Positions 4,044-48,290 of a stretch of 64,000 bases of DNA are shown here, piece by piece. Both the position numbers and the translations under genes were made by a program. The first letter of the stretch is position 1. Each line of letters opens with the position of its first letter. The notes beneath the pieces were generated by a model. The model had not been told where the DNA came from. It searched no databases and saw nothing but the letters and a program-made list of their open reading frames with translations. Origin of the DNA: Candidatus Omnitrophota bacterium (GTDB taxonomy: Bacteria; Omnitrophota; Gorgyraeia; Zapsychrales; Fredricksoniimonadaceae); NCBI GenBank assembly GCA_015232565.1, contig JADFZK010000002.1:64935-128934 (forward strand), written 5' to 3'.

Positions 4044-4068
4044 TCCTAACATTTACCCGGAGCATACT

Positions 4069-4798: not shown

Positions 4799-5389
4799 AT
4801 GTCAAATGAAAAGCCTTTAACAACCGGTGAAGTGGCCGACCTGACCCATGTGCATTTAAGGACGGTCTTGCAATGGATCCATGATGGAAAGCTTAAGGCG
4901 TACCGCACGCCCGGTAATCACAGCCGCATCCAGGTTTTGGACTTTATTGATTTCCTGAAAACTTACAATATGCCGATCCCCGAATTTCTGTCTTTACGGG
5001 GCAGTACCCGCAAGATCCTGATCGTGGATGATGATGCCAACATGGTGAGTTCTTTAAAACGCCTTTTCAAGAAAGATTCGTCCTTCGAAGTGGATGTGGC
5101 TTATGACGGCTTTGAGGCGGGTATTAAATTGTTGTTGTTCAAGCCGGATATAGTTATCCTCGACATGAGAATGCCCGGGATGAACGGCTATGAAGTGGCC
5201 CAGAAAGTGAAGCGTTCACCGAATTGTGTTCATACCGCCATCATCGGGGTTTCGGCGTATTTTGAAGAAGCCGATAAAAGGCGTTTGCTGGAGATCGGGG
5301 TAGAAGCTTGCGTGGATAAGCCGTTTAATTCCGAGGCCCTTTTGGCCCAGGTGCATTCGTTAATGAATGTGGTGAAAGCCAAAGGCTGA
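4799..5389 (+). CDS. Response regulator with an N-terminal excisionase/MerR-like HTH and a C-terminal receiver (REC) domain
   Basis: The N-terminus TTGEVADLTHVHLRTVLQWIHDGKLKAYRTPGNHSRI is a helix-turn-helix of the HTH_17/excisionase type. It is followed by KILIVDDD...DIVILDMRMPGMNGYEV with the phospho-acceptor Asp in DMRMP. It is paralogous to the protein encoded at 59548-60165. Confidence 0.75.
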   Translation: MSNEKPLTTGEVADLTHVHLRTVLQWIHDGKLKAYRTPGNHSRIQVLDFIDFLKTYNMPIPEFLSLRGSTRKILIVDDDANMVSSLKRLFKKDSSFEVDVAYDGFEAGIKLLLFKPDIVILDMRMPGMNGYEVAQKVKRSPNCVHTAIIGVSAYFEEADKRRLLEIGVEACVDKPFNSEALLAQVHSLMNVVKAKG

Positions 5390-5397
5390 TCGCCCGT

Positions 5398-9130: not shown

Positions 9131-9424
9131 TTAAGCCATTGTCCCGCAATGTTTTGTGTTTCTTCTGGTTTGTCGTAAATCAATCGCAAATCATTCTGAA
9201 AACACCTTGAATTCCTACCCGCTGTATGGTTAGATAGTGCATCTCCATCTATAAATTCTTTTTAAATTCTTATCTACTCAGGGTTGACTTTTTTCATGCC
9301 CTTATTTGAATACACTAAAAGATTTAACTTTTTAATAGCCCAACGCACGACCACTGTGACGTGTAAGCTATTGAACGCCTGCCGGCATGCCTTTTGCACC
9401 CCGTTAATTAATGATTTATTCATG

Positions 9425-9530
9425 TTCGTAGGGGCGGACTTTATGTCCGCCCGGCAATATGACGATTCTTCAATGCGTCAGACAAAAAACGTCATTACGC
9501 CGGGCGGACATAAAGTCCGCCCCTACGGAC
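9425..9530. repeat. REPIN/BIME-like element: two inverted REP-like hairpin units flanking a roughly 45-nt spacer
   Basis: Left arm CGTAGGGGCGGACTTTATGTCCGCCCGGC at 9427-9455. Right arm GCCGGGCGGACATAAAGTCCGCCCCTACG at 9499-9527 is its exact reverse complement. Each arm is itself a hairpin (GGGCGGAC/GTCCGCCC stem) next to a conserved GTAG. The spacer contains its own ATGACG...CGTCAT inverted repeat. Confidence 0.75.
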
Positions 9531-9721
9531 AGATAAGAATTCCATTACTTCACGCAATAGACCAGTTCCGCCCAGGCTTACATGTTGAAATTCCATCGCA
9601 TCGAATTATAGCCAAGGGCGAACCCGGCGCCCCGGTAGAGATTTCATCCCGTCGAACTTTAGCGAAGGTCGGGCCGAGCACCCTTGTGAACTCGCATTTG
9701 GCGTTGCGGGTGGTGGCGGGC

Positions 9722-15700: not shown

Positions 15701-18700
15701 TGGACAGTAGATTCTGACGCCACTGTGGAATTATCGGGCAATCTGTTTGTAACCGGCGATGTGACCATCAACGGACAGGTGAATACCAACGGGTTTAATA
15801 TGACTGTTGGCGGTAACTTAGATATCGCATCCGGCGCTACACTTGACGCCAGTCAGGATACCGGCTCCAGTAAGTCTGCTATTACGGTTACCGGATATTT
15901 TCATCCGACCGGCAATTTTGTTACTGACAGCACTACCCTTGCCATCGGTGCGGGCACTACCGCTATGAAATCCCCCTGGAGCCTGGGCAGTATCACGGTA
16001 GCCTCCGGTGCTGTTTTAACTACCGACGGATATAACTTTACCACTGCCACAGATGTTACGGTGCCCGGCACCCTGAACGCGGCCAGCGGAACAGGCGGCG
16101 CCAGTACGCTCACTGTGGGCGGAGGAGTTAATCTGGCCAATGGTGCCTTTACCGGTTCCGATTCAACTCTGATCCTGAATGCCAGTTCCGGTGCACAGTC
16201 ATTTGTAACCAATAATCAAACGTTCAATGTGATCCGGGTGACCGGCGCGGGTTCCTGGACTGTGACCGGGGGCTTAACCACCAGCAGTGATTTCACCATG
16301 ACGGCAGGCACCTTCAACGCCGCCAGCGCCGGCACCATGGACGTGAACGGGTCATTGGCGGTCACCGGGGCTTTCATTGCTCCGTCGGCGGTAATGTCGG
16401 TGGCCGGGTCGCTCACTATCGATGCCGCCACCACCTGGACCAGTTCTTCCGGCATCCTGAATTTTGATGCCAGCGGCTCCGGCAAGACCATTACCACCAA
16501 CGGCAAAAATCTTTACAATGCCTATTTCACCGGCTCCGGCGACTGGACTTTTAACGACAGCACCACGATCACCAACGATTTCACTCTTGCCGCCGGTACA
16601 CTAAAAGGCGGGACTTCCACTATTAGCGTTGGCCGGAACTGGGATTCCTCGGGAGCAACGGCTACATTTACATACAATCAGTCTACGGTTGACCTTACCG
16701 GAACCGGGCAAATGAAACTGCCTTATAATTCCTATTTTTATAACCTTAAGATCGCGGCACCCGGGCAGACAACCACCGTGCTCGATCCCACCAGCCTGAG
16801 AAACTTTTACATTTATGGCACTCTTACCCTGGGCTCCGGAACGCTGACTCATTCCACTGGCGTCTACGGATTATTATTTATACTTCGGGGAACCGTTACT
16901 CCGCTGGTTTATAACAATACAAATTTCGTTTACGGCAATATGTTGATCTACAACACTCAGGAAGACGGCTACACCTTTACCGTGCCGGCTATATCGACCG
17001 CGTCGAATCTGGCCGTTTCATTTACTCCCGCGGCAACTGTTACCTACAACCTTGGCGGCGCTTTGAATATCGGCGCCTTTGATGCTTATCAACAAACGGC
17101 TGGCAAGACATTGACCTACAATACAAATGGCTTTCCCATAACAACGTCAAACTTTGTCCGGGCTGTTGCCGGAAATGGTTCCATGGCTTATGCCCGAGGT
17201 GCCACGATTGCCAATTTCGCGAACAGCACAGTTACCGACGGGTGGGATGCCGGCACAACCTGGAGTAGTTACGCATATTCAGGAACGGTTAATCTTGAGT
17301 CTTCTGTCTGGGCTGTGTCCTGGGACTGGACCATGCAATCCTCCAATGGCACCATCACAGTCAATCCCGGCACATCCACAGTAAAGCTTTACAACACATG
17401 TAAATTGTGGTCGGGAGGAACTTCGTTTAACAATCTGCAGATCCTGGGCAATAGAACGCCCTACGATAACGTGTCGGTACTTGGTTCGTTGTACCTCAAG
17501 TCGTTTTCTTTTAACTGCTCCACCTATAACGCGGCCGTTACGGTGGCAGGCGCGGTTACGATCGATGCCGGATTCGCGTTCACCGCCGGAACCGCACCAT
17601 TTAATATTTCAGGCCCGACAGCCGCTTATACCAATGTTAATATCGCCGCTACCACCTGGACGGGCGGCACTTTGAACATACAGACCGATCTCGACCAGAC
17701 CCTGCCGTCGGGGGAGACTTATGGCAACCTGCAACTGGGCCGCTACTCAGGAAGTGGCGGGACGATATTCACTATGGGCTCGACCATTACTGGCAACTGG
17801 ACAGTGGATGCGGATGCCACGGTGGAACTATCGGGCAATTTAACTATCTCGGGGAATGCCACTATTAACGGCCGGGTGAATACCAACGGCTGGAACTTAA
17901 CTGTGGGCGGCAACTTTGATATTGCCTCCGGCGGCACACTTGACGCCAGCCAGGATACCGGCTCAACCAAATCGCGGATCGCGGTCACGGGTTACTTTCA
18001 TCCGCTGGGGAATTTCATCTCGGACAATACCACTCTTTTGATCGGCGCCGGCACTTCTACCATGAGATCCGCCTGGAGCCTGGGCAGTATCACCATTGCC
18101 GCCGGGTCCACTCTAGTTACTGACGGCTACAACTTCACCACCACCTCCGACGTAACCGTGCCCGGCACCCTCAACGCCGCCAACGGGGCCGGAGGCTCAA
18201 GCACTCTGGCCATCGGCGGCAGTGTGAACTTTACCGGCGGCACATTTACCAATACCCTTTCGACAGTTATTCTTAATTCGACCACCACGGCTCAAACCAT
18301 ACTTACGGCCGACAACCAGTACAATGTGCTAACCGTGTCCAATTCGGCGGCGGGCGGAGTGACCTTCTCGGATGCCTGGACGGTGGTGGACTTTACCGAT
18401 ATTACCGCCGGGTCAAAATTGTATTTCGAGAACGGCATAACTTATACAATATCCGGCACGCTCACATTAAACGGCACCTCGGGGAATCTTATAACACTCA
18501 ACACCCACGACGGCTTAACCACCAACTTCATACTTAAACCCGCGGGAGGTGTGCCCACGGTTAATTATTTAAGCGTACGGCGAGCGGATGCCCAAACTAA
18601 TGACATTACTTGTGTAAATTGCAACGACGCCGGCTACAACAACTCCGGCACCGGAAATAAACTCTGGGACTTCGACAACAGCGCAGAAAACGGCGGCTTA

Positions 18701-18724
18701 ATCTTCGGCGCCATGATGTTCTAA
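9722..18724 (+). CDS. Giant (about 3000 aa) secreted repeat protein; a predicted beta-helix, adhesin-like surface protein rich in FxxN motifs
   Basis: Single uninterrupted ORF. A signal-peptide-like start is present (LALRVVAGMILAAGVLLSCSTAQA|AS), reached by ATG at 9722 or TTG at 9698. The ORF-track start at 9284 is an artefact of read-through across the REPIN region. Composition is heavily biased to T/G/N/S/A. Dozens of TFNG/FNGx (FxxN) motifs are present, together with long internal near-duplications. No recognisable C-terminal sorting motif. Confidence 0.8.
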   Translation: MILAAGVLLSCSTAQAASRYWVGANGANTNDANNWAGADPASCAGGGAGIPGNSDIAYFDADCDSNASINANLNVAGINIASGYSGTITQTSTYTVTVGASHYTQVDGTFTGGSGAITNSGNFSVTGGAFTATSGTLSVAGDVNLSGGTYTHNNGIIDLTKAAGTQTFDSGNQTFYRINHNAAGTLQLINNSVTATNYIYQTAGTIDLNTLSMTSQGNGRVRYGGILNNGTFTVSGLTGNQVTIDNNAVIGANIYITAGSINFTDATFNGVAFLNCNGTTQGDSVSYGGSTFNSDTTLQTSGSVQFYTSQSKADTFNGPLTLNNTSNGTLTINWAGNNTKFNNNIYVNNTGSGTVSVGAYYGSSMTLADGYTISVGSSGVSSGTLSIKGLLQAGTTAQNIALTGTATMNISYGGTFNGDLTVTGGTGNTVNTYSTATRFNGNLNVTAGIINLNGGTFNGTSYFKQTGTTSDSGGSSGSCTFNSTTTIENNGSRGFSLGYSTTDTFNGPLTLTNTSSGYVNVVSGTSGTVFNNDIFFNNTGAGTTSIGNYNGTRTSTLADGHSLSIGTTGFSSGTLAIRGLTQVGSTGSTLDLTGTSSLVMNYANTFNGPLTISTPVFNLGRSTFNGPVTITKTGLAGSYTYTDGGDTFNSTFTFNQNGTGSGGGATSAYQYLGNNGLYETFNGDVTFNILNNSDIGLNQTGYKFNGNLIVNSSGSGNIYIYNSTLATGKTISVGTGYTGGELRLQGFNQVGATAQNLTMGGTSILTLGTGTTFNGDTTFSVYQTTATSVTFNGATTFEATKYWRIYGSTFNGPATMNNPSTNDWSGFQNTATTFNNDVTFTTTGNQSSYVAFGVNTIFNGNVTGANRVVWGNGGIPVFSKTSGVQTLDTANIAFSNLTHSGAGALQLTGNNLRMTNGTALINSAGTLDLNGRNITAVSTTFTLTNSGGNIQLINTETTNNFTQYTSNGTWTYVGNGTATTRTIKDFGATDYFNLSINATGATPDVFQITSPLNLVGALRVQTPFTPGTYLVTLSGATASYTSTNIDISKTTWTGGSLNIQSDLDQTLPSGETYGTLQLGRFSGTGGTIFNMGSTIEGNWTVDADATVNLTGDLVISGSATINGRVNTQGWNLTIAGTLDMNGTLDATRGATASTITLSGSADFTGGTFTRDNSVLLFNGTGTKTLKSASNTFNTLQVNNAGLTLSMQDSLLVGGDLTLTAGTLDVTASNYAISAAGTWTNAGGTFTPRNGTVTLNGASQRINGTNTFYNLQKNVTTAGTLTFESGASQTISNALTLTGQSGAILTLASSSGGSYWNVNPAGTHTLSYLSVSDSNNTGADINTAGLNIADGGHNVGWTFVANGTWTGGGADNNWSTPGNWSSGVPATSDVVVFDTTSTKSCIVDIPATVAGLNMATGFTGTITVSNGFTINGDATLNAGDFNAAGASTLDINGSLAIISSDFTAPTNAVMSISKSLTIDSTASWNFSGSGTLFFDASGTTKTITTNSKQLQNVRFDASYAGSTGTIWTLQDNFTAYSINVATTLANASLVDNGKTVTVNSPTAANITINTSAVNIAPSTGTWVMAANGTVSNTVQGFAIFEASAGVTVTISGTCVFKKGVLGANATVNGGQFYAYSPTANDYFDFAAGSNVSNILTLYGGANRTQKSINITGRFFDFSYANSSVIMSGDWTVGNMQLSPSAGTNSDTEAEARVFDTNSKNLTANGWVILGAAGSLSRQGQQKLLLRNGTHVITGALYVVQGAVPSAGLVILDDSAGSVALEVDGNWTMKDMKVTLGSASVISKGNMDYSSMYISSESTWGMNAGTSTITLSGAANQTITAANSVDNTGAAIAEFYNMVINKTGAAGTDKVIISSPANTLDLTVTNSARVIDGILDLATNSAVMTIGVALTIDTAGSMTVGAASTLTIAGTAATYKSSDIFSIANTTWASTATLNLQSDLDQTLPSDETYGNLQLGRYSDSGGTIYTMGSTIAGDWTVDSDATVELSGNLFVTGDVTINGQVNTNGFNMTVGGNLDIASGATLDASQDTGSSKSAITVTGYFHPTGNFVTDSTTLAIGAGTTAMKSPWSLGSITVASGAVLTTDGYNFTTATDVTVPGTLNAASGTGGASTLTVGGGVNLANGAFTGSDSTLILNASSGAQSFVTNNQTFNVIRVTGAGSWTVTGGLTTSSDFTMTAGTFNAASAGTMDVNGSLAVTGAFIAPSAVMSVAGSLTIDAATTWTSSSGILNFDASGSGKTITTNGKNLYNAYFTGSGDWTFNDSTTITNDFTLAAGTLKGGTSTISVGRNWDSSGATATFTYNQSTVDLTGTGQMKLPYNSYFYNLKIAAPGQTTTVLDPTSLRNFYIYGTLTLGSGTLTHSTGVYGLLFILRGTVTPLVYNNTNFVYGNMLIYNTQEDGYTFTVPAISTASNLAVSFTPAATVTYNLGGALNIGAFDAYQQTAGKTLTYNTNGFPITTSNFVRAVAGNGSMAYARGATIANFANSTVTDGWDAGTTWSSYAYSGTVNLESSVWAVSWDWTMQSSNGTITVNPGTSTVKLYNTCKLWSGGTSFNNLQILGNRTPYDNVSVLGSLYLKSFSFNCSTYNAAVTVAGAVTIDAGFAFTAGTAPFNISGPTAAYTNVNIAATTWTGGTLNIQTDLDQTLPSGETYGNLQLGRYSGSGGTIFTMGSTITGNWTVDADATVELSGNLTISGNATINGRVNTNGWNLTVGGNFDIASGGTLDASQDTGSTKSRIAVTGYFHPLGNFISDNTTLLIGAGTSTMRSAWSLGSITIAAGSTLVTDGYNFTTTSDVTVPGTLNAANGAGGSSTLAIGGSVNFTGGTFTNTLSTVILNSTTTAQTILTADNQYNVLTVSNSAAGGVTFSDAWTVVDFTDITAGSKLYFENGITYTISGTLTLNGTSGNLITLNTHDGLTTNFILKPAGGVPTVNYLSVRRADAQTNDITCVNCNDAGYNNSGTGNKLWDFDNSAENGGLIFGAMMF

Positions 18725-22682: not shown

Positions 22683-25600
22683 ATGCGTAGAATTGTTTCA
22701 CTAATTACAGTGTGCTGTTTTATTTTGAGCGGCAATGGTTTGCCGGCGGCTCTGGCGCAAAGTGTGATCCTGCCGGAACCCGGGCGCATGATCGCGCTCA
22801 GTCAACCCTTGACAGCTGTTACCCTCAAAGGGGTAAAGGTTTATGCTAATGATCCCTTGCGTCTGGATTTCATTATAGATAATAGTAACCTTGATCGTTC
22901 GCCTGTGTCCGATACAGGTGACCAGACCCGGCGGTATAAGGAAAGTCAGGCCGTCGAATCCCGGAAACTTATCAAATATTTTCTCGCCGCTCTAACAACT
23001 CCCGAGAAGGACCTGTGGGTCAATTTAAGCCCTTATGAAAAAGAACGCATTGTGCCGGAGGCTTTTGGCTTTACCGAGATGGGCCGCGACCTGCTGGCCC
23101 AGGATTATTTGTTAAAGCAGGTTACCGCGTCCTTGATCTATCCGGAAGGCGCTACCGGCCAGAAGTTCTGGTCCGAGGTATATCGCCAATCGTCAGCGCG
23201 CTACGGCACTACCGATATCCCAATCGATACCTTCAACAAAGTCTGGATCGTCCCCGCCCAAGCCACAATCTACGAAAACACCACAGCCGGCACAGCATAC
23301 ATAACCAAAAGCCGCCTAAAAATAATGCTGGAAACCGACTATTTAGCAACGTCGAATAAACCAATGCCAAACCCCACAATCGACCCAACCGAAATCACCA
23401 AGAACATCCTGCGCGAAATCGTGATCCCCGTACTGGAGAAAGAAGTCAACGAAGGCGCCAACTTTGCCCCACTCAGGCAGGTATATAATTCCCTGATCCT
23501 GGCGGCCTGGTTCAAAAAGAAAGTATCCGGTAACGCCCTGGACCAAGCGTTTGTGGACCGTAACAAGATCGGCGGCATAAACATCAATAACCCAAAAGAA
23601 CCCGGGCAGATCTGGTCCACCTACGTAGAAGCGTTCCAGAAAGGCGTATATAATTTCATCAAGGAAGAGATCGACGAGCCCACCGGCGAAGCTTTGCCGC
23701 GCAAGTATTTCTCCGGCGGAGCAGTGTTCGATAATAGCCAGCTTGATCCAGTACTGTCCTTCACTAAGGACGCCGCCGCGATATCCGGCCTGAGAGCCAA
23801 AGGCTTAACTTTGGTCGCCGCTTTATTAGGACTGGCAGGGGGGATGTATTATTTAAAAGCACCCACGCGCAACTTGCACAACGAAGCTTCGCCGCCAGAA
23901 ATTACCGTGAGCACTACCAATACCCGCACCGCTATGCCTGATCTCCCGAAAGCGCCGGCTTATCAGGGCGTAAACGGTTTTATGAATCTGGTGCTGGCGT
24001 CGACCGACAAAACCAATCTGTTCAATAACCTCAACATTAATATTACGGGCAAAGACCTTGCCAATCCGCAGATCTCCCGGGAAATGCGCGACGCCTTCAA
24101 CGCCGGGCTTAACCTGGAAATGGAAGAAGAGAGTTTTTCCTTCTTTATGCAACATTATTCCTTTGTGCGTTTTGAAACTATCGTTATGCAGATCCGCCTG
24201 GGCGATGCTTTCCAGAAAGCTATTGAAACATTTGCCGAAGAATTCCCATACCTCGACGGACAAATAATGCCCGATCGGGAAGCTTTCGGTGCCTGGATGG
24301 ACACACTGCTGTTGACCCATGAGCTGGGGCCCGAGACCTACCAGAAAAAGCTCCGTATGGTCTCAGAACTATTTCCCGATGATGTTCTGGTCTCGGCCTG
24401 TATAACTTTGAGGCAGAAAGATCCCCATTATCCTTTCTGGCGCATGATGAATAATTTTGTCAGACTTATCCATAAGTACGGCCAGGATGTGGAAAAGGCA
24501 AAAAACTCCTTACTAAAACTACCGTCCGAATTTGGCAATTTTACACTTCAGGACATTGCTAATATCTTTGCCGGTATTATGGATTACCCGCAGGAATATG
24601 TGGATCAGTTTGTTTCGAATGTTATGATCCGAAATCATTATTGCCTGGAATTATCGGTTGATCAATTAAAAGCTATGTCGGAAAGTTCATTTATCAGCTT
24701 TCTTACCTTTAACAGTACTTTTCGTGTTTTGATGCTTAAAAAGCCATTGGCGGCGGCTGTTTTCTTGCTTAACGAAGATCCGGGCCGCAGATTTGTTTAT
24801 GCTGACCAGGAACGATTGGCACAATTTCAGCTAGCCGCCGGTTTACCGGATAAGGAACTATTTAATCTACTTAACTGGAACTGGATCAAGATTGCCAACA
24901 AAGTTTCTTATGAAACACGTCAAAGATTGATTGCCATGGACAATGTTTCCTGGAGGCTGGAATTCGCATTAAACAATGTTATTCCCGGGTTCAATCCTGC
25001 TGACCCGTTTACAACGGCTAGCCTTGAGGTGGCATTAAAGCGTTATGGTAATGATTATAAGCGCCGTTTTGAGACATATGCCATCAACGATATTATCAAA
25101 GAAATGAATAAAGAAACCCGCGCACAACAAGAAACCAAATTGCGCGGACTTATAAGACAATACCTGCAAATGTCTTTTCAGGCCTCGGTTATGTCCCGCG
25201 AGAATGGTAAGAACAAGGAACTACAGGTTTTGCGTCAAAGGATCAATGATCTTACGACCATCATTAACACCCTGCGACATACTATCGACTCAGGAATCAT
25301 GGAGATTCATGAGCTATCTCTCCCAAATATTCCTGACACTAACAGTCCATTCTCTATGGAAAATATCTTACATCGCAACTCCGCGACTACTCCCGTAGAA
25401 GTAATTCCAACTACCCCCGAAGAAGCAATCCCAAAGACTCCCGCCACACCAGCCTGGACCGATTCTCCGGTGGTAGAAGAGAGCACCCCTGCGCCGAATC
25501 GAGTACCGCGCGCGGCGCCGCATGGGATCGGGACCAGAGACCAATTGCCAGAAACTCCTCCGTCGGAACCGGAACAGGGGGATCCAGTTCCGGGCTTCGA

Positions 25601-26210
25601 CCAACCGTCCGAAATGAATAATGTACCCCAGCCCACCGCGGAGCCTGAGCTCAATAATGAACCACAGCCACTTGAAACGTACCCAGGGGGGCCGGGGAAC
25701 TTATTACCACTTAATGCTTCACTAAATCCGATAGCTAATATGGGGGCAATAACGAAGGATCCGCTTGATCCGGTGCTCGATCTGATCGCCAATGGCCAGA
25801 TGCTATCAACGACGGGCGGCAATTATACTTTGCTTACATTCAGCGGTAAACTGGGGATCCGTATCAATAACCAGAATTCCGCGATCGAAACAATCTTTGA
25901 ATTTGGCCCGGATCAAGCCCCGGTTGAATTGAACATTACTGGCGAGCCAATGAAACGTATAACGGACAAAGTTAGTACCCGGCTGGCGGCCGCCGCTAAC
26001 GGGGTGGATCAGGCGGGACTCACGCCCGGTGGTATCGATCTTGGCTCCAGCGCTCAAAAAGTTATGATTAACGGCAACGGGCAAGGGAACATCACCGTCG
26101 CAATAAATCCGGCCTTACTACAACGCCTCCAAAACGCCTCAGGCCTTTTCCCGGTAGTCCTGGACAGCCAACCACTGGAAAGTTTAACGCGTTTTCTGGG
26201 TATTCAGTAA
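22683..26210 (+). CDS. Large secreted protein (about 1175 aa) with an unrecognised conserved N-terminal domain of roughly 350 aa, a predicted TM/hydrophobic segment, a helical middle, a Pro/Glu-rich linker and a C-terminal domain
   Basis: Signal peptide MRRIVSLITVCCFILSGNGLPAALAQ from the ATG at 22683. The N-domain is clearly homologous to the N-terminus of the 43101-48290 protein (shared LWVNLSPYEKERIVP, DLLAQDYLLKQ, YGTTDIPID..NKVWIVP, FAPLRQVY..LILAAW.KK, PRKYFSGG). A hydrophobic stretch LTLVAALLGLAGGMYYL follows. A low-complexity PTTPEEAIPKTPATP linker is present near residue 900. Confidence 0.7.
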   Translation: MRRIVSLITVCCFILSGNGLPAALAQSVILPEPGRMIALSQPLTAVTLKGVKVYANDPLRLDFIIDNSNLDRSPVSDTGDQTRRYKESQAVESRKLIKYFLAALTTPEKDLWVNLSPYEKERIVPEAFGFTEMGRDLLAQDYLLKQVTASLIYPEGATGQKFWSEVYRQSSARYGTTDIPIDTFNKVWIVPAQATIYENTTAGTAYITKSRLKIMLETDYLATSNKPMPNPTIDPTEITKNILREIVIPVLEKEVNEGANFAPLRQVYNSLILAAWFKKKVSGNALDQAFVDRNKIGGININNPKEPGQIWSTYVEAFQKGVYNFIKEEIDEPTGEALPRKYFSGGAVFDNSQLDPVLSFTKDAAAISGLRAKGLTLVAALLGLAGGMYYLKAPTRNLHNEASPPEITVSTTNTRTAMPDLPKAPAYQGVNGFMNLVLASTDKTNLFNNLNINITGKDLANPQISREMRDAFNAGLNLEMEEESFSFFMQHYSFVRFETIVMQIRLGDAFQKAIETFAEEFPYLDGQIMPDREAFGAWMDTLLLTHELGPETYQKKLRMVSELFPDDVLVSACITLRQKDPHYPFWRMMNNFVRLIHKYGQDVEKAKNSLLKLPSEFGNFTLQDIANIFAGIMDYPQEYVDQFVSNVMIRNHYCLELSVDQLKAMSESSFISFLTFNSTFRVLMLKKPLAAAVFLLNEDPGRRFVYADQERLAQFQLAAGLPDKELFNLLNWNWIKIANKVSYETRQRLIAMDNVSWRLEFALNNVIPGFNPADPFTTASLEVALKRYGNDYKRRFETYAINDIIKEMNKETRAQQETKLRGLIRQYLQMSFQASVMSRENGKNKELQVLRQRINDLTTIINTLRHTIDSGIMEIHELSLPNIPDTNSPFSMENILHRNSATTPVEVIPTTPEEAIPKTPATPAWTDSPVVEESTPAPNRVPRAAPHGIGTRDQLPETPPSEPEQGDPVPGFDQPSEMNNVPQPTAEPELNNEPQPLETYPGGPGNLLPLNASLNPIANMGAITKDPLDPVLDLIANGQMLSTTGGNYTLLTFSGKLGIRINNQNSAIETIFEFGPDQAPVELNITGEPMKRITDKVSTRLAAAANGVDQAGLTPGGIDLGSSAQKVMINGNGQGNITVAINPALLQRLQNASGLFPVVLDSQPLESLTRFLGIQ

Positions 26211-26298: not shown

Positions 26299-28104
26299 TT
26301 ACGCTGAGCGAGTGGGTGTTTTAACAGGGCAAAGGGCGGCTACTTTACGGGCGCAATCGTCGAGCTCGCTGAGAAACCGCTCGCGCGCGGTATCCGGCTC
26401 TTCGGAGATCAGTGGGACCAAAGTGCGGTAGTAAGCAATACCATCGTTCAGGTTGCGGGTGTATTCCTCAATGACCGCCTGGCGTTTATTGCCCGGGTCA
26501 TCGCTTTTATCAGCCAACAGAATTTCAAACTGATCGATATTCAGCCGAAGCTCTTTAATGAACATATGCGGGCGGTTCTTAAAAGGCATGATATTGCGCC
26601 GGCCGTAAATATGGTCGATCATGTCTTTTAAAGTGGCCGGACGATTAAAATAAGCAATGTTGGGCCCGGGGCAAACCGCCGGAGCGGTGCCTTCTTTTTT
26701 GGGAATATTCTCGTTAACGTAAAAACTGTCCCCAAGCTGGGCGCAAATACAGGCTTTACTGGTGATCTTGCGGGCCTGGCGATCGTACTCTTCCTGGGAA
26801 AGACCCAGGGCTTTAATGGCATCCAGTTTTAATTTCTGATAGGTCCGCGAAGCGGTACAGATCGGGTTCTTGGTAAACTCGGTATTGTTAGCCAGATGGC
26901 CCAGCAGGCAGGGACTGCCCGGTTCACCGCTGTTTATCAAGAGGCATCTTTTAATCTCGCTTAACGAATTCCGTAAATTATTAAACGCCACATTTAATGG
27001 CGAAACGTCACTTAAATAAATATCGTTCTCGCCGGCCGCGGCCAAACGGTCGAGCGTTTCTTTATCAATCTGCACCGCTTCGGGCACCAGCAGAAAAGGC
27101 GAACCCCAGCCGGTAGATATCGCGCCGTAATACCTTCTGAGAAAAACATCCTCAGCATAAGTGCCAATGCCGCCCTGGGCGGTCAGGCGAAAATCCAGAG
27201 CTCCCGCCGGCGCTTTCTTCCCTTTGGCTTTTAAAGCTTCCAGGTAAGCGGTGCCCAGCTGGTCAATAAGTTCCTGTTTTCTTTGTTTGAACTCTTCCAG
27301 TATCGGCCCCATCAGGTAACCGGAACCGGCAAAAGCATGGCCGCCGCAATTCAAGCCCGATTCAACGCGGAATTCCGAAACCCACAGGCCTTTACGGGTA
27401 AGAAACTTGCCCTGGGTAATTGCCGAGCGATAATCACTGACTTTCAGGATTATCTCTTTTTTAATAATGCCCCGGGCATCCGGATAAAAATCCGCAAACT
27501 CTTCAATATAGGTGTAAAGGCGGCGGTTAAAACCGGCCGAAAGCACGATCGCCGAAGTTACAGTACTGTTGGCATAACCACGTAAAGCGGAAAGCGCATC
27601 GGAATGTTCGTCGGGCAAAACTTCACCGGTCTTGGCAAAATTCAGCCGGTCGATCTTGGTCATTATATTGACGTCAATGCGGCCGGGGGCAATCATGGCC
27701 CGCAATTTTTCCTGTAAAAGGGCTTTGGCGCCAGTATCACTGCAAGAGAGCATGGACCGATAAAGTTCTTTGGCCGGAGAAGTCTCGGGCAGAAAATCGA
27801 AATATTTATTTATCTCACTGCCGGGTTCAAAGCGGGCATTCTTAAGGCCAGCGATCTGTTTTTGAATGATGCGGTCGGATAAATTAAGGTATTCGGTTAT
27901 ACGCCTTGCGCGCCAGTCATTATCGTGCTTCTTAATAGGCTCGTAAGGCTCGCCGTATTGCTGGGCATAGAATTTACGGACATCTTCGATAAGATTGTCA
28001 TCCACCAGGGATATGACCGACGAAATACCATAACGCGCCACGCGTATCGGCGAGTCGGTGGTAAATCCGGTGCCCATTACGGGTATGTGGAACGTATGCG
28101 CCAT
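26299..28104 (-). CDS. Hypothetical 601-aa protein, possibly a TIM-barrel enzyme, function unknown
   Basis: Long ORF with good coding character and no overlap. Motifs IPVMGTGFTTDSPIRVARYGISS, GLNCGGHAFAGSGYLMGP and TAQGGIGTYAED are reminiscent of FMN/phosphate-binding TIM-barrel families, but I cannot assign a family confidently. Confidence 0.55.
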   Translation of the reverse strand: MAHTFHIPVMGTGFTTDSPIRVARYGISSVISLVDDNLIEDVRKFYAQQYGEPYEPIKKHDNDWRARRITEYLNLSDRIIQKQIAGLKNARFEPGSEINKYFDFLPETSPAKELYRSMLSCSDTGAKALLQEKLRAMIAPGRIDVNIMTKIDRLNFAKTGEVLPDEHSDALSALRGYANSTVTSAIVLSAGFNRRLYTYIEEFADFYPDARGIIKKEIILKVSDYRSAITQGKFLTRKGLWVSEFRVESGLNCGGHAFAGSGYLMGPILEEFKQRKQELIDQLGTAYLEALKAKGKKAPAGALDFRLTAQGGIGTYAEDVFLRRYYGAISTGWGSPFLLVPEAVQIDKETLDRLAAAGENDIYLSDVSPLNVAFNNLRNSLSEIKRCLLINSGEPGSPCLLGHLANNTEFTKNPICTASRTYQKLKLDAIKALGLSQEEYDRQARKITSKACICAQLGDSFYVNENIPKKEGTAPAVCPGPNIAYFNRPATLKDMIDHIYGRRNIMPFKNRPHMFIKELRLNIDQFEILLADKSDDPGNKRQAVIEEYTRNLNDGIAYYRTLVPLISEEPDTARERFLSELDDCARKVAALCPVKTPTRSA

Positions 28105-43100: not shown

Positions 43101-46100
43101 ATGTTTAGCATATTAAGCCAATTAATATTTTGTCGCTGGATCGCGATATTCCTGACCGGGGTCTTACTTCTGCAATCCTCAGGGGTTGCTCTGGCGGCGG
43201 AAATCATTTCGTCAGGATCCCCACTGGCCGCATCCATATACACAATACGCCAGCCAGCACTGCCGCAATTAAAAGGCCTGATTCTTAACCGTCAGGATCC
43301 GCTCAAGCTGGCTTTTATTCTATCCGGAGAGGGCGCTAGTGAACCGGCCACTTTGGATCCGGTTGCCGGACGGCGTTTGGCCGGGTATTTTCTGGCCGCA
43401 CTGGCTATTTCCGATAAAGACATCTGGGTCAATCTTTCCGCATTCGAAAAAGACCGTACCGTGCCGCCAGCCTTGGGAACCACGCCACTGGGGCAGGACA
43501 TGCTGGCGCAGGATTACCTGCTTAAACAGCTCACTTGCGAACTCACCAATCCCGACACTGCCCAGGGACGTGTTTTCTGGAACAAGATCTACGCCGCACT
43601 TAACAAACGTTTTGGCACCACTGACCTCCCGGTGGACCTGGTGAACAAAGTCTGGATCTTGCCGGAGAAAGCAGTGGTATCACGCAGGGGAAATGCGGTT
43701 TATGTAGTAGAACAAAAACTTAAAGCCATGACTGAAACAGACTATTATGCTCTCCGCCGATCGGGGGCACTAGCCCCCAATGATACCCAAGATATCTCCA
43801 ATACGGTTTTACGCGAAGTGATCCTTCCGCTAATTGATCAGGAGATCAACAACGGCGTGCAATTTGCACCATTACGCCAAATCTACAAAGCCATGATCCT
43901 GGCGGCCTGGTATAAAAAAAACCTGCGCCGATCCATTCTGGGCTCTGCATACGCCGACCAAAGCGCGGTAAACGGGATCCGTGCAACAGATCCAACAGCC
44001 AAAGAACACATCTATACTGCCTACCTGGAATCATTTCGCCAGGGAGCCTACAACTTAATTCGCGAGGAGCAAGACGCCTCGTCCGGAGAAAATATCGCCC
44101 GAAAATATTTCTCCGGCGGCCTAAGCGGACTGGGGCCCCAGGATTTCAGCGAGATCAGCAGCAGGTCGTTAACTTCGTACCAACAAAAACAAACGGCCAG
44201 GCCTGGTGATATTATAATGGGAGTGCAACTGCGTACTCTTGATTTTGCAGGGGATACTCTTGCTGATGAAGTCAAACTTTCCGATTCACTAACTGAAGAC
44301 ACCAGGCTATGGCAGCAAATCTTTCAACCAATTGATGAGTCGGCAATCAGAGTAAATAGTTTCTTATCAGCAACAGGGGCCAATGATTCACCAAATCAGC
44401 GTTTGTTTGATATATTGCTATACGACGAACTGCGTCTGGTAAAGAAACGAATGGATTTTGGATATCTTAAGTCTGGCACTGCGCACTTATCTGTTGATTA
44501 TTTTGACGGAATGATCCGGGCGATTGACCGGATCTTGATAACATTAAGTACCCTGCCGGCAAATTCAGCCTCGTTACAAGTTGGAATACAATGGTCGATC
44601 CAGGCGGTACAACAGTCACTAAAACCATCTTATGCGAACAACCCGGATTTGCAAGCTGGCCGCGGATTACAGTTCGTCATTAATTCTCTGCGCGGCATTT
44701 CAACTCAACACTACCGATCATTTCTTAGAATGAAACGTTATCTTGCACTTCTAAGAGAAAATTACGCACTCCCTACAACCTCTTTAAATCCGTTAAAGAC
44801 CGCGAACATCGCTGAAGATGAAAGAATGTGGTCTATAGCGGATCAATTAAACAACCAATGGGTTGCAGTACAAAATATTGTTTCGCGCGGTATCGCTGAT
44901 ATCCAATATGCAGGAGGGACAAGTCATTTCATTGGTGAAGCCCTGGATGAGATATTCAGTGCCTTTCAGGTTGCTAAGAATCGGGACTATATGTATCCCA
45001 AACAAGCCACATATATTGAAACCAGGCTTGCTCTTTTACAAGAAACACTGGAAAAGTGGAGCGATCCCGGCGAAGAACTTGCCAACAGGCAATGGGCAAT
45101 TGGGATCCTACGAAATGCCCGTAGACTGACACCAGCTGAAAAAGAAGATGCAGTCAAAAGAATCTCGACGGCCAAATTCATTCTAAGAAATGGTCTGAAG
45201 GTTATGGGACCGAACATCAAAGAAGCATTGGAAATTCTGAATAAAAGCCATTTCTTTCAGAACGCCGAGGCAGTTATTGAATATTTCAGCCAGCGAGATA
45301 GATCAATCAGCACTCGAACCGATTGGGATATTAATTCATCGGTTTTCGCTAACTGGACTTCAGTGAATCCTATTACGGTTCCGCCTACTCTTGAGACTGA
45401 CCCAATTGACATCGTTGCTTTGCCTGGCTATCTTCGTATACCAATTGTACAAAAAGCGGATGTGCTTCTTCAATCGGGATGGAATGGTAATCTGACGGCT
45501 TCAGTTGAGCAGTATCTAAAAACTTATTCGAGTTCGACCCTGTCGCCAGAAGCATATATGGCAATCAACGGGTTTGCCAGAAATGCCTCCCAACACAGAC
45601 AGACTGTGACAGTAGGTGACAAGATTATCTCTGGTACAGATTTCAATTCTTACCCTCAACTTCTGGCCCAGTTGCTGGATTTCTCATTATGGCGCTTGGC
45701 GGGCATAGATCCGTTTAGTGATGTTGGTAGCCGCCTGGCGGCTGTTTACCCTGCTATTGGGGTTAACGGAACCCAAAGAATCGGTCAAAAGGATGTAAAC
45801 GATAAATCCAGGATTATTACCGAGTTTATCGAAAGTTTAAATGCAGACATTGAAATTCGTGAAGCTTTTCTTAAGATAATGGACGCTTTTCTGACATTAA
45901 TATTCAATGATCAAATGTTCCGTCAACAGATCGATCCACGGGCAGGCCGGGGGGATGAGCATGAATATGGGCTGGTCTGGCCAGGTCAATTCTGGAGTAA
46001 CAGTACTGTCGATCAACTTGATCAATTGCCGGGCTTCGACCTGATCCAATATAAAGCCAAGTTCAATGAAGCTACCGCAGTATTTGTTTCTCGTATTCGT

Positions 46101-48290
46101 GAGCTTTTACCGTACAGACTATATTTGGCTAAACAATCCGGGCATATAAATATAGAGCCAATAATTAGTCGGGTGTTCAACGATAGCACAGGCAAGATCA
46201 AGTGGCGCCAATGGCATGTAGATCGTATTTATGAAACACTTCTGGCAGTAAAAGCACAAGGCATGTCGGAGGAAGCTGATGCGCTCTGGGAAGCGTTTAA
46301 ATCTAAACTAAGCACTATCGATCCCGCCGAAATAATTGCCCGCTCTTTTGACTCTGCTGGTAATTCTTTGCAGATGACTGCCGCAGAAGACCAACTGGTA
46401 CGTGAATGGTTAGACAGGAATAATCTTAAATGGCCAGTACCCCCGGATGTTGCAAATCTTACCCAAAGCGAACGGCTCAAATTTCTTACCCGATATTTGC
46501 TGAACCTTTACAAAATCATACCCAAATTTGATGATCATAAATGGCCGGTACAAATTCAGTATCCGTTAATTACTGAAGATCAACTCAAATTCCCGGGGCT
46601 TGGTGATACTTTTTCCTGGAGCAAAGTGGACACCTGGCAGAATTGGTTTATGCATACCTGGCCGGCGAATTTAACACTTTTCAACGGAGGAATTGAATTT
46701 ATCATTCCCGAGATAGAAAAATTGGAGAATGGGACCACGAAAGATCCGAATGGAACTATTAGTCAAATAGCAGAATATTTCACGTATGTTACAGAATCCA
46801 TGTATGACGTTACTACAGTTATTAATATGCTATCTGACATGCAGGGGGCCATTATAAATAATACATTCCGCACTAAATGGCCCGAAGGTATTGGGATTGG
46901 TTCCCCGATCAAGAGCGAAGATAAGTCCAACTGGTTTATCTACCAGATATTCAATGCTCACTCCAATGCGATAACACATCGCGCTGTTTTAAAGAAGATC
47001 GTTCTGGAGTTAGACCGTATTCGCCCAGATTGGAATGTTGCACTAAATGAGTTCAACCAATGGATCGCTAAAATAATGTTTCCTCATCCGGAATGGCAGC
47101 AAAATCTAAGAAAAGCTCAGATAGAGTTTGAGAATAATCAACAACTCCAAAAGGCCCGTTCCAGACAATCCCTCAGGACCGAAGCGTTAAGCGCGATATC
47201 AGAGCTGGTCGATCAAAGAAAGCAGGAAGCAAAAGAAAGATTGCATGCTCAGAATTTAATTGAATGGGCCCGGGCGCAGGCGCGTGGGGAGGCTTCTTTA
47301 ATGTTGCCACCGGTTTGGAGTGCTGATAACACCAGACTTGGAGAATTAAACAACCGAAACCGGGTTATTACACTAACGCCGGAAGTAGCCTATGTTATAG
47401 AAGAGATGACAAATCGTGATTATCCAATCGTTTTTAGAATTTTTAAAGATGCGGTACGCCATAAGGCCGGAATAGCAGGCAATAGCAAAGAATGGAAAGC
47501 TTTTGAACATATTTTCTATTCCAATCCTGACGCGGATGAACTTGCCGAGATGATAAAACGCTTCGACCTGCTTTTGGCGCTTACGCCAGCTGAGCAGATG
47601 AAATTCCTCGCTATGTACGAACGATATAACAGGGCCGGTTATTTCATTTTATATGAAGCTCAACTTTACGATTTTTATATTGATCGAAATGACCTTTTTA
47701 TTCAGGCCATCTTTGGCAAAGGCCATGGTTGGGAATTTATACCAGTTGCGAATAAACTAGGCCGCCTCAGAAAACTATTTCTTGATACCGACGCCCGGTC
47801 ATCTTTTGAATTAAGCTTTACAAATCATATGGCAACGATGCACGCCCATATTCGCGCCAATAATCTCACTCCGGCTATCAAGATTTGCATCTGGGTCGTA
47901 GAAAGATTCAAGAGATCTAAACTTTCTACTCCGTTACCACGAATATTAGCTCTGCTGGATAAAATCGCCTCAAATGAGCCAGCGCTCACCGCTCGTTGCA
48001 ATAATGTTAAATCGGCGCTTATCGATCAAGTAACAGGTTCAAATCCTAAGACGATGGACGGTCAATCACGAAAAAGGTTACCCACAGATTCAGCCGAAGG
48101 GCTTAAAGGCGGGATCGATTTCGCCGCTATGGGGTATACAATTAATGAGAACACGGAGAATCTGGATCTAGCCTGGCCGTCAGTTTGGCCATATGGCGGC
48201 AAGCCTCTTAATGACCTTACCCCTATAATTATCGGATATGCGCGCGCGTCAACATTACCCGGATTGATCCGGCCAGCTATTGCAAATTAG
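43101..48290 (+). CDS. Very large secreted protein (1729 aa) sharing the unrecognised N-terminal domain with the 22683-26210 protein, followed by about 1350 aa of mostly helical sequence of unknown function
   Basis: Signal-peptide-like N-terminus MFSILSQLIFCRWIAIFLTGVLLLQSSGVALAA. The N-domain motifs IWVNLSAFEKDRTVP, DMLAQDYLLKQ, FGTTDLPVD..NKVWILP, FAPLRQIYKAMILAAWYKK and ARKYFSGG align with the paralog. It is transcribed divergently from pntA part 1, with a 225-nt AT-rich intergenic region between them. Confidence 0.7.
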   Translation: MFSILSQLIFCRWIAIFLTGVLLLQSSGVALAAEIISSGSPLAASIYTIRQPALPQLKGLILNRQDPLKLAFILSGEGASEPATLDPVAGRRLAGYFLAALAISDKDIWVNLSAFEKDRTVPPALGTTPLGQDMLAQDYLLKQLTCELTNPDTAQGRVFWNKIYAALNKRFGTTDLPVDLVNKVWILPEKAVVSRRGNAVYVVEQKLKAMTETDYYALRRSGALAPNDTQDISNTVLREVILPLIDQEINNGVQFAPLRQIYKAMILAAWYKKNLRRSILGSAYADQSAVNGIRATDPTAKEHIYTAYLESFRQGAYNLIREEQDASSGENIARKYFSGGLSGLGPQDFSEISSRSLTSYQQKQTARPGDIIMGVQLRTLDFAGDTLADEVKLSDSLTEDTRLWQQIFQPIDESAIRVNSFLSATGANDSPNQRLFDILLYDELRLVKKRMDFGYLKSGTAHLSVDYFDGMIRAIDRILITLSTLPANSASLQVGIQWSIQAVQQSLKPSYANNPDLQAGRGLQFVINSLRGISTQHYRSFLRMKRYLALLRENYALPTTSLNPLKTANIAEDERMWSIADQLNNQWVAVQNIVSRGIADIQYAGGTSHFIGEALDEIFSAFQVAKNRDYMYPKQATYIETRLALLQETLEKWSDPGEELANRQWAIGILRNARRLTPAEKEDAVKRISTAKFILRNGLKVMGPNIKEALEILNKSHFFQNAEAVIEYFSQRDRSISTRTDWDINSSVFANWTSVNPITVPPTLETDPIDIVALPGYLRIPIVQKADVLLQSGWNGNLTASVEQYLKTYSSSTLSPEAYMAINGFARNASQHRQTVTVGDKIISGTDFNSYPQLLAQLLDFSLWRLAGIDPFSDVGSRLAAVYPAIGVNGTQRIGQKDVNDKSRIITEFIESLNADIEIREAFLKIMDAFLTLIFNDQMFRQQIDPRAGRGDEHEYGLVWPGQFWSNSTVDQLDQLPGFDLIQYKAKFNEATAVFVSRIRELLPYRLYLAKQSGHINIEPIISRVFNDSTGKIKWRQWHVDRIYETLLAVKAQGMSEEADALWEAFKSKLSTIDPAEIIARSFDSAGNSLQMTAAEDQLVREWLDRNNLKWPVPPDVANLTQSERLKFLTRYLLNLYKIIPKFDDHKWPVQIQYPLITEDQLKFPGLGDTFSWSKVDTWQNWFMHTWPANLTLFNGGIEFIIPEIEKLENGTTKDPNGTISQIAEYFTYVTESMYDVTTVINMLSDMQGAIINNTFRTKWPEGIGIGSPIKSEDKSNWFIYQIFNAHSNAITHRAVLKKIVLELDRIRPDWNVALNEFNQWIAKIMFPHPEWQQNLRKAQIEFENNQQLQKARSRQSLRTEALSAISELVDQRKQEAKERLHAQNLIEWARAQARGEASLMLPPVWSADNTRLGELNNRNRVITLTPEVAYVIEEMTNRDYPIVFRIFKDAVRHKAGIAGNSKEWKAFEHIFYSNPDADELAEMIKRFDLLLALTPAEQMKFLAMYERYNRAGYFILYEAQLYDFYIDRNDLFIQAIFGKGHGWEFIPVANKLGRLRKLFLDTDARSSFELSFTNHMATMHAHIRANNLTPAIKICIWVVERFKRSKLSTPLPRILALLDKIASNEPALTARCNNVKSALIDQVTGSNPKTMDGQSRKRLPTDSAEGLKGGIDFAAMGYTINENTENLDLAWPSVWPYGGKPLNDLTPIIIGYARASTLPGLIRPAIAN

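Follow-up and report, generated by a model that had tools for sequence, protein, structure and literature searches.

An Omnitrophota protein family with constant ends and unrelated internal regions, tentatively read as exported carrier-payload effectors

Two large open reading frames, ORF A and ORF B, located in a 64,000-nucleotide stretch of Candidatus Omnitrophota contig JADFZK010000002.1 (hereafter the window), are two members of a very large and previously undescribed protein family that appears to be confined to Omnitrophota. Its members are built in three parts: a signal peptide with an N-terminal domain (N-domain) running to KYFSGG is followed by a cargo region of about 0.1–2.5 kaa, unrelated from one member to another, and by a C-terminal module (C-module) of about 60 aa. 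We tentatively read the family, with a probability of roughly 45%, as polymorphic exported carrier-payload effectors, A and B among them.

Both reading frames lie where the sequence-only reading had placed them. A is identical to the 1175-aa database entry P0258 ('HQL20_01025, Candidatus Omnitrophica bacterium'), and this identity, together with a purine-rich GGGGA just 5' of the ATG at 22683, favours that ATG over the TTG at 22647 as the start of A. The features of A are:

22683..26210, + strand: ORF A, full tripartite family member of 1175 aa, with signal peptide, N-domain, orphan cargo and C-module
22683..22757, + strand: predicted Sec signal peptide, residues 1–25, with MRR, a hydrophobic core and A-L-A25/Q26 (sequence prediction)
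22758..23720, + strand: N-domain, residues 26–346, LPEPG ... KYFSGG (family profile hmmsearch 491 bits, E 5e-149)
23769..23780, + strand: D363-A-A-A, variant 'DxA-other', 17 aa past KYFSGG at the usual place of D-x-A-M
23805..23855, + strand: hydrophobic 17-aa segment LTLVAALLGLAGGMYYL, residues 375–391, a possible membrane helix by hydropathy
23856..25322, + strand: orphan cargo, residues 392–880, with no Pfam family and no homologue but itself in a word-indexed search
25323..25781, + strand: Pro/Glu/Thr-rich low-complexity linker, residues about 881–1033, with at least 8 Pro per 40 aa
26007..26018, + strand: D1109-Q-A-G, 3 residues upstream of GGIDL, where other members have the D-x-A-M that precedes the C-module
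26028..26207, + strand: C-module, residues 1116–1175, GGIDL...NPALLQRLQNASGLFPVVLDSQPLESLTRFLGIQ (hmmsearch E 5e-17, 26-sequence profile)

The features of B are:

43101..48290, + strand: ORF B, divergent family member of 1729 aa (N-domain profile 381 bits, E 3e-115)
43101..43196, + strand: predicted signal peptide, residues 1–32, ...GVALA/AE, with A-L-A32/A33
43197..44120, + strand: N-domain, residues 33–340, ending in KYFSGG (BLASTP against A, family profile)
44121..48107, + strand: cargo of about 1,330 aa without recognisable domains
48108..48287, + strand: probable degenerate C-module, GGIDF ... TPIIIGY ... LPGLI (non-significant: hmmsearch E 1.7, hhalign probability 11%)

The comparison of A with B by BLASTP aligned residues 3–346 of A with residues 12–340 of B (39% identity, 59% positives, E 3e-76) and gave no second significant alignment. 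All the sequence blocks from which the similarity had been noticed (FLAAL..WVNLS..EK, LAQDYLLKQ, GTTD.P.D..NKVWI.P, ETDY, FAPLRQ.Y..ILAAW and RKYFSGG) fall inside this alignment and correspond to nearly invariant columns across the wider family. The shared domain is real, with a length of about 320 aa (A 26–346) instead of the 350 aa first proposed, and it begins directly after the signal peptide. The signal peptides predicted for both proteins are supported by a hydrophobic core and an AxA site in A and B and by a K/R n-region in A; the hydrophobic segment and the Pro-rich stretch described for A are likewise present at the residues listed above. The hydrophobic segment reaches a KD of at least 1.7 over 17 aa but not of 1.6 over 19 aa. 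The statement that the two proteins diverge completely after the shared domain does not hold, as A ends in the family-wide module, and the conserved unit in what had been taken for a C-terminal domain of about 150 aa measures about 60 aa. In B the C-module is probably degenerate and vestigial, judging from the sequence: the GGIDF start alone aligns, and the hallmarks of the tail keep the family spacing, with 39 residues from GGID to P[VI]II in B versus 41 in the family alignment (A7), inside which the C-module of A aligns.

The two paralogues are no peculiarity of one genome. A search with the N-domain profile retrieved at least 8,315 clusters at 50% identity (6,662 at E <= 1e-30), essentially all from Omnitrophota metagenome genomes and with every named match assigned to Omnitrophica/Omnitrophota; the N-domain always starts at residue 1–51 among these matches. 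Nearly all complete ORFs in 80 related loci carry the N-domain at residues about 35–370 and the C-module 0–14 aa from the end, and the C-module ends 0–23 aa from the C-terminus in 124 of 137 family representatives. One member of 438 aa (P0015) lacks a cargo and consists of N-domain and C-module. Paralogues are found in tandem arrays of three (loci L001 and L029) or two (L026, L024 and L066), and one MAG carries at least 8 of them, as counted in the best 80 loci. Just 9 of 62 members, A included, have a hydrophobic segment in the 120 aa that follow the N-domain, so that it is no family feature; B has none.

A closer inspection of the N-domain showed a sequence under strong constraint. Within one genome the N-domains of paralogues are 75–91% identical while their cargos are unrelated, and the four-fold-degenerate sites of the same N-domains are only 24–45% identical. 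Since synonymous sites are saturated, these paralogues must be old and under strong purifying selection, and recent gene conversion does not account for their identity. The invariant residues include Ser, Lys, Asp, Glu, Asn and Arg but no His or Cys. The AF2 model of the N-domain of A (pLDDT 80, pTM 0.72) is mixed alpha/beta, mainly helical with three hairpins, and has no structural neighbour among PDB or BFVD (predicted viral) structures. Sequence searches with the N-domain found no match in Pfam, NCBIfam or PDB, and the complete proteins A and B gave nothing at E <= 1 against Pfam and NCBIfam, in agreement with the original view that the domain belongs to no recognised family. The role in secretion, targeting or host binding that the sequence-only reading had given it was conjectural.

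The middle regions of the family are as variable as the ends are constant. Among 62 complete proteins, only 18 directed pairs of all those possible showed cargo similarity, and related cargo was found in 12 of 1,175 protein pairs whose N-domains are 80–90% identical, which agrees with the earlier idea of a constant module carrying unrelated payloads. The cargo of A resembles none of the 61 other family cargos and retrieved only itself in a word-indexed search of 5.8 billion proteins. The domains recognised in other members comprise HATPase_c, SAM methyltransferases, PPDK-like dikinases, HEAT/TPR/WD40 repeats, radical SAM, Glu dehydrogenase and His phosphatase, and further GNAT, HAD, PLD, SNF2, ABC1 kinase, DnaJ, FHA, M48 and AvrB_AvrC. 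Individual cargos combine B12-binding and radical SAM domains with an intact CxxxCxxC (L073), radical SAM with His phosphatase (L045), or DnaJ retaining its HPD with HATPase_c (P0153). By these predicted domains the cargos are mostly enzymes and regulators of cytoplasmic type.

The boundaries of the cargo are marked by a short family-specific motif, D-x-A-M, which had been overlooked together with the C-module (consensus GGID[LF]...DPAML...PVII...FLG, about 60 aa, modeled by AF2 with low confidence). In cargo regions D-x-[AS]-M was observed 373 times versus 23 expected, a 16-fold enrichment, and it clusters right after KYFSGG and right before GGID; interior sites between cargo domains number 114 versus 20 expected. 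The motif is nearly missing from the N-domains (2 in 61 kaa) and shows no enrichment across 484 non-family ORFs of the neighbourhood (23 observed, 26 expected). Its wobble positions vary, so that it is a peptide-level motif. It lies at most 25 aa from GGID in 81 of 208 proteins, with nothing at that place in 57, and roughly one quarter to one third of the junctions lack it. Inside the C-module it appears as DPAML in 72 of 193 cases, where it could be a simple helix cap. Neither A nor B has a canonical D-x-A-M; D-x-A-[A/G/E] stands at the equivalent places, in B as D-x-A-G/E at residues 381, 1084 and 1663. At module boundaries the motif is proposed to serve as a cleavage site for release of the payload, or else for docking.

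The N-termini carry the features of export signals throughout the family: in 209 complete N-termini an h-region was seen in 208, K/R ahead of the h-region in 196 and a small-x-small site just before LPxPG in 196. An inspection of the gene neighbourhood, proposed earlier as a check for secretion-system genes next door, found no linked secretion-system, chaperone or immunity genes in the window or in the 80 related loci, and a small co-directional ORF within 400 nt downstream in just 9 of 53 loci, these ORFs being mutually unrelated.

In the effector reading, Sec would export each protein with cleavage of the signal peptide, and the N-domain and C-module would form a constant carrier, recognised by a single shared apparatus that would carry the protein over the outer membrane, into another cell, or both. 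As the payload, the middle region would make up a polymorphic effector repertoire, and the D-x-A-M sites would release this payload or serve docking. We infer these steps of export, outer-membrane passage, processing and delivery into a target cell from the architecture. Since many payloads need ATP, SAM, cobalamin, Fe-S clusters or Hsp70 partners, they would likely act in the cytoplasm of host or prey cells. The reading is weakened by the demands of exporting unfolded B12/Fe-S enzymes through Sec and refolding them in another cell, for which we know of no precedent with cargo of this type. The possible stop-transfer helix in A also counts against it, as it would leave the cargo of A in the cytoplasm of the producer, and so do the lack of linked secretion-system, chaperone and immunity genes and a D-x-A-M motif that is not shared by all members, is non-canonical in A and B, and may be a mere helix cap inside the C-module. 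The more specific proposal, that N-domain and C-module are a new-fold carrier, apparently specific to Omnitrophota, which reaches the periplasm via Sec and delivers thousands of distinct cytoplasm-type cargos into host or prey with release at D-x-A-M, is somewhat unlikely.

An unlikely alternative is that the proteins are enzymes resident in the envelope, brought by the signal peptide to the producer's periplasm or cell surface, where N-domain and C-module would anchor or assemble them (on peptidoglycan, the outer membrane or a surface lattice) and the middle would work. The signal-peptide features are consistent with this, the constraint on the N-domain fits binding of a fixed envelope component, PLD-like, M48 peptidase, TPR and WD40 cargos suit an extracytoplasmic role, and the cargo-less P0015 suggests that the N+C core is functional in itself. 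However, SNF2, DnaJ, HATPase_c, kinases, methyltransferases, B12-radical SAM and Glu dehydrogenase need cofactors or partners absent from the periplasm, and searches of Pfam and NCBIfam revealed neither an anchoring domain nor a sorting signal of known type. Self-processing, compatible with any localisation model, would instead make these proteins polyproteins cut after D-x-A into separate mature proteins by an N-domain protease, for instance through a Ser/Lys dyad (the invariant S90 and K119 in the numbering of alignment A1). Ser/Lys proteases, among them signal peptidase I, LexA and birnavirus VP4, typically have Ala at P1 of the cut site, and the D-x-A sites fit this preference; their position at module boundaries and between cargo domains, their depletion in N-domains and the invariant polar and charged residues of the N-domain point the same way. 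Peptidase families remain unmatched in sequence and fold, though, the motif is missing from a substantial part of the junctions and it also belongs to a helix of the C-module, and the proposal has a low probability.

A location of the cargo in the cytoplasm of the producer, with the protein tethered to the inner membrane by an N-terminal hydrophobic anchor or by a transmembrane helix behind a periplasmic N-domain sensor, would accommodate the cytoplasm-type cargos and the hydrophobic segment of A, and similar Pfam modules in giant Omnitrophota proteins are read as inner-membrane-anchored cytoplasmic domains (10.64898/2026.06.07.730766). Such a tether is nevertheless quite unlikely: with a second hydrophobic segment in so few members (A yes, B none), the membrane should not separate cargo from N-domain in most of them, and K/R before the h-region with the conserved AxA/Q predicts an N-in orientation and cleavage, which would put the bulk of the protein outside. 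The classical interbacterial polymorphic toxins (Zhang, Aravind et al. 2012, PMC3482391) join a constant N-terminal trafficking part to unrelated variable toxic domains, accompanied by immunity proteins, and resemble the family in this, in their many paralogues and tandem arrays and, in some classes, in an N-terminal Sec signal. In the Omnitrophota family, in contrast, the variable part is internal instead of C-terminal, with a constant module after it, and Pfam and NCBIfam show no match between the N-domain and a known trafficking domain. Adjacent immunity genes are missing and the few small downstream genes are heterogeneous; nucleases, deaminases or pore-formers do not dominate the census, which holds mainly regulators, repeats and enzymes of metabolism, and the paralogues are old and not recently recombined. 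Membership in this class is improbable.

To our knowledge, the MARTX toxins are the sole well-known class with constant ends around interchangeable internal effector domains that are freed by processing. MARTX toxins of Vibrio and relatives use type I secretion without a Sec signal and carry glycine-rich A/B/C repeat arms and a C80 cysteine protease domain. They share with the family the constant N- and C-terminal regions around an internal mosaic, but the family has classical Sec signal peptides and far smaller carrier parts (320 + 60 aa), and neither repeat arms nor C80 were found in A or B, with no Pfam match above noise. Cargo of type IX secretion (extracellular enzymes and adhesins) likewise has a Sec signal, a variable region and a short conserved C-terminal domain; it has no equivalent of the conserved 320-aa N-domain, and the C-terminal-domain models of that system in Pfam/NCBIfam found no match in A or B at E <= 1. 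Autotransporters and other type V systems, which have a terminal beta-barrel translocator domain of at least 250 aa, were rejected given a C-module of just about 60 aa, a mainly helical N-domain model and no Pfam autotransporter match. Type VI effectors with MIX, RIX or PIX (e.g. PMC10435454) also have an N-terminal domain of obscure function that marks a class with diverse payloads, but these are spike-loaded and have no signal peptide, whereas the Omnitrophota family has a Sec signal, a C-module and no linked T6SS genes.

The giant Omnitrophota proteins of 10–150 kaa, with many transmembrane helices and links to T2SS/Tad genes (West-Roberts et al. 2023, 10.1101/2023.11.21.568195; 2026 preprint, 10.64898/2026.06.07.730766), share with the family the phylum and have a strikingly similar set of embedded Pfam domains, with HEAT, HATPase_c, radical SAM, PPDK_N, NUDIX, HAD, GNAT and methyltransferases; compared by their descriptions, neither the N-domain nor the C-module nor D-x-A-M is described in those two works. 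A host-dependent or predatory lifestyle is discussed there as a proposal, which for these abundant and almost entirely uncultured bacteria rests mostly on indirect genomic hints. If the delivery-carrier reading is true, this family of more than 8,000 clusters, rich between its constant ends in cofactor-dependent enzymes and in regulatory or eukaryote-like domains, would be the main effector arsenal behind that lifestyle; if it is wrong, the family still hints at a new mode of enzyme organisation in the Omnitrophota cell envelope. The Sec signal peptides on B12/radical-SAM, DnaJ and SNF2 domains pose a testable paradox, and the two constant ends with an exchangeable middle provide a concrete, searchable marker of candidate effectors in any Omnitrophota genome.

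An anti-phage defence function found no support in PADLOC, whose models matched neither A nor B nor the neighbouring 601-aa ORF. The latter is a convergent gene 3' of A, and a Phd/PIN pair lies 3' of B.

Both open reading frames singled out by the sequence-only reading are present in the window with the coordinates and lengths assigned to them, and both N-termini are built, as had been claimed, like Sec signal peptides:

22683–26210, + strand: protein A, 1175 aa; predicted signal peptide with MRR, a hydrophobic core and A-L-A25/Q26; N-domain at residues 26–346
43101–48290, + strand: protein B, 1729 aa; predicted signal peptide with a hydrophobic core and A-L-A32/A33; N-domain at residues 33–340

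The proposed kinship of the N-terminal parts was borne out by BLASTP, in which residues 3–346 of A and 12–340 of B form the sole strong alignment (39% identity, E 3e-76) and the remaining segments give noise-level scores only. The shared domain exists but is smaller than the 350 aa or so first put forward, measuring about 320 aa, since it spans the predicted cleavage site to the KYFSGG motif. The hydrophobic segment (residues 375–391) and the Pro-rich stretch (about 881–1033) of A lie where they had been placed. The impression that no recognised family is involved also stands, as neither A nor B has a Pfam or NCBIfam match. A PADLOC scan of the two proteins gave no match, and tests for membership of their family in known families failed. 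Sub-threshold DUF896 matches in 11 of 25 N-domains in a lenient Pfam scan (best E 0.004) fall on a K/E-rich helix and were rejected as noise.

Further N-domain proteins, for which a search had been proposed, are abundant: residues 1–406 of A returned more than 1,200 matches at 45–60% identity, all with source names of Candidatus Omnitrophica or Omnitrophota. When a profile built on 25 N-domains was run against 1.84 billion cluster representatives, E ≤ 1e-3 was reached by 8,315 proteins and E ≤ 1e-30 by 6,662; the N-domain starts within residues 1–51 in each of the 150 matches listed, and these proteins are 435–2,915 aa long. With one genome scanned per species, more than 589 N-domain loci came to light. 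The MAGs behind the best 80 of these bear the labels Omnitrophota/Omnitrophica, 'uncultured Planctomycetales' (third-party assemblies) or Ca. Elulimicrobium, the last placed by NCBI in the Patescibacteria group; among these 80 alone, single MAGs account for at least 8 copies, and family genes are commonly arrayed in tandem, in twos or threes. A matches 'HQL20_01025, Candidatus Omnitrophica bacterium' at every residue, and a further member, P0010 ('HQL20_11560'), comes from the same MAG series. Isolate names among the best matches include nCal2bin1, Cal1bin1, MBPbin6 and nDJH... (loci L005, L007, L010, L012, L013 and L015, among others), with proteins HQL12–HQL26. Names of this kind are found in magnetotactic-bacteria surveys for many of the best-matching MAGs, including the window's own (HQL20).

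A recurrent C-terminal sequence was first seen in the tails of the initial N-domain matches, and a profile of 66 positions was built on 26 of these tails. This C-module has the consensus GGID[LF]-x(11)-N-x-G-x(2)-I-K-F-x(2)-DPAML-x-QLQNAPGF-x-PVII-x-IQP-x(3)-L-x(2)-FLG. The complete divergence of A and B after the N-domain, as first described, therefore applies to their unrelated middles and not to the C-terminal end of A, which is the family-wide module (E 5e-17 against the 26-tail profile). In B, GGIDF, TPIII and LPGLI occur at matching spacing and the profile match is not significant; to judge from these motifs, its tail is probably a degenerate copy. In nearly all complete ORFs of the 80 loci the N-domain occupies approximately residues 35–370 and the C-module ends 0–14 residues before the stop, and in 124 of 137 further representatives it ends 0–23 residues from the C-terminus. 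ORFs lacking it at the 80 loci are mostly truncated by contig ends. At six loci (L011, L054, L056, L063, L067 and L075) the two modules are divided between successive ORFs, the second bearing the C-module alone; these are likely frameshifted or decaying members, or assembly errors. A search with the C-module profile matched only fragments of 63–126 aa, mostly from short contigs.

The 438-aa protein P0015, present on 5 contigs (the longest of 43.9 kb), has no middle "cargo" and consists of an N-domain, a linker of about 20 residues and a C-module; this could be an ancestral or core form of the family. An AF2 model of it, meant to show the packing of the two constant parts, gave pLDDT 40–70 in the C-module. 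In many members the stretch past KYFSGG (residues ~335–370) shows a weak, recurrent likeness to the N-terminal half of the C-module profile (E 0.5–15 each; for example in P0144, P0088, P0123 and P0253); the junction may have been duplicated, or cargo may have entered a once-continuous N+C protein.

Compared with one another, the cargos of 62 complete proteins (among them A and B) prove unrelated, with only 18 directed BLASTP pairs at E < 1e-5, none of which involves A or B. A word-indexed search of 5.8 billion proteins found no homologue of the A cargo besides A. Among 193 full-length proteins, 1,175 pairs have N-domains 80–90% identical and related cargo is found in only 12. N-domain and C-module identities correlate (r = 0.62), so that one constant end tends to accompany the other. 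The suggestion of a shared module with divergent payloads is partly supported and considerably enlarged. In six family loci (L004, L019, L001 at 944–4210, L006, L026 at 3254–6034 and L071) a second signal-peptide-like segment lies in the first ~60 residues past KYFSGG, as in ...SIAIVLSMSSGQAQA, ...VLASNALGQAQS, the twin-arginine-like RRQFLSKLGIAIAG and the lipobox-like ...SLSSC. Such sequences give the impression that entire precursor genes were captured between the two constant parts.

The two junctions are marked by a short motif. Composition predicts 23 copies of D-x-[AS]-M in the cargo regions of 149 proteins; 373 are present, 168 of them within 50 residues past KYFSGG, often as two copies ~25 residues apart, and 75 within 30 residues ahead of GGID; the cargo interior holds 114 (20 expected). 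No enrichment was seen in 484 non-family ORFs of the same loci (23 vs 26 expected), and N-domains contain 2 in 61,292 residues. In 72 of 193 the motif also begins the C-module helix, as DPAML. The motif is not universal in the family; the canonical form is absent from A and B, which have D-x-A-[A/G/E] at the corresponding places. A DNA signal, namely a captured start codon with its ribosome-binding site, was rejected: wobble positions vary and no purine-rich signal lies upstream, so that the motif acts at the peptide level.

N-domains of paralogues in one MAG share 75–91% amino-acid identity, and the four-fold-degenerate third positions of their identical codons are only 24–45% identical, near saturation. 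The paralogues are therefore old, and their similarity is kept by purifying selection; recent gene conversion is ruled out by the saturated synonymous sites. Alignments of 25–103 sequences contain ~30–50 invariant columns, many aromatic, with others including Ser, Glu, Asp, Lys, Asn, Arg and Gln; no His or Cys is invariant. The AF2 model of the A N-domain (103 sequences; pLDDT 80, pTM 0.72) comprises three beta-hairpins and seven long helices. No PDB or BFVD structure was matched by Foldseek at E ≤ 0.001 (query-normalised TM-scores ≤ 0.17), and a sequence-profile search of PDB was empty; as modeled, the domain has no known fold match in PDB or BFVD. In many members a variable insertion near profile positions ~190–195 splits the match in two, at a site coinciding with a low-confidence loop after the second hairpin of the model.

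In 126 cargos or full-length members, Pfam scans recognised HATPase_c, several SAM-methyltransferase families, PPDK-like dikinase domains, repeats (HEAT, TPR, WD40, pentapeptide), radical SAM with B12-binding, Glu/Leu dehydrogenase, histidine phosphatase, GNAT, HAD, PLD-like, SNF2-related, ABC1 kinase, uridine kinase, DnaJ, FHA, M48 peptidase, GT1 and AvrB_AvrC; NUDIX is also among the cargo families. Three members illustrate the combinations:

L073: N-domain, B12-binding (522–611), radical SAM (729–894) with CPMGCAFC, C-module
L045: radical SAM and His phosphatase
P0153: DnaJ with HPD, and HATPase_c

These activities depend on ATP, SAM, cobalamin, Fe-S assembly or Hsp70, and hence on a cytoplasm, which makes Sec export paradoxical. 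We favour, with a probability of roughly 0.45, polymorphic carrier-payload proteins: Sec would export them, a common machinery would read both constant ends, and the payload would be destined for the cytoplasm of another cell. Every step after translation is a proposal drawn from sequence, and no delivery machinery is linked to the family genes in the window or at the 80 loci. Enzymes resident in the envelope would fit the predicted signal peptides; typical extracytoplasmic enzymes or adhesin folds do not dominate the cargo lists and the cofactors call for a cytoplasm, and this reading seems doubtful. Cytoplasmic proteins tethered to the membrane would meet that need, and are judged somewhat less probable again. 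Improbable, to a similar degree, are classical toxins, no small gene lying systematically downstream across loci, and self-processing polyproteins, in favour of which stand the motif-marked junctions. Together, these rivals keep substantial weight.

The proposed carrier-payload system would belong with the modular polymorphic effectors, its nearest analogues in logic being MARTX toxins and polymorphic toxins. The family appears undescribed; a full-text literature search (motifs; Omnitrophota with effector, paralogue, polymorphic and N-terminal-domain terms) found no description of it. Giant Omnitrophota proteins carry very similar embedded Pfam domains (10.1101/2023.11.21.568195; 10.64898/2026.06.07.730766), and these papers mention neither N-domain nor C-module.

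Secretion-system genes, which were to be looked for among the neighbours, were not encountered, the window containing no secretion apparatus. A and B are flanked by housekeeping genes (ThiC, an AAA_14/DUF4143 ATPase, a BioB-like radical SAM protein, PntAB and a Phd/PIN pair), and elsewhere the window carries genes for ATP synthase, Trk, TCA and menaquinone enzymes and signalling proteins. Across the 80 loci, any given non-family gene turns up in 6 at most. Three features deserve separate mention:

48350–49089, + strand: Phd/YefM antitoxin and PIN toxin pair, directly downstream of B
26299–28104, − strand: 601-aa ORF convergent with A; Pfam and PADLOC scans negative
9284–18724, + strand: 3,146-codon ORF, T/G/N/S-rich, with long internal repeats (e.g. 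recurring '...DLDQTLPSGETYGNLQLGR...' units)

The first is probably an independent toxin-antitoxin module and not an immunity gene of B. Residues 155–3146 of the last match no Pfam family, and the product resembles a surface protein of the beta-helix or adhesin type.
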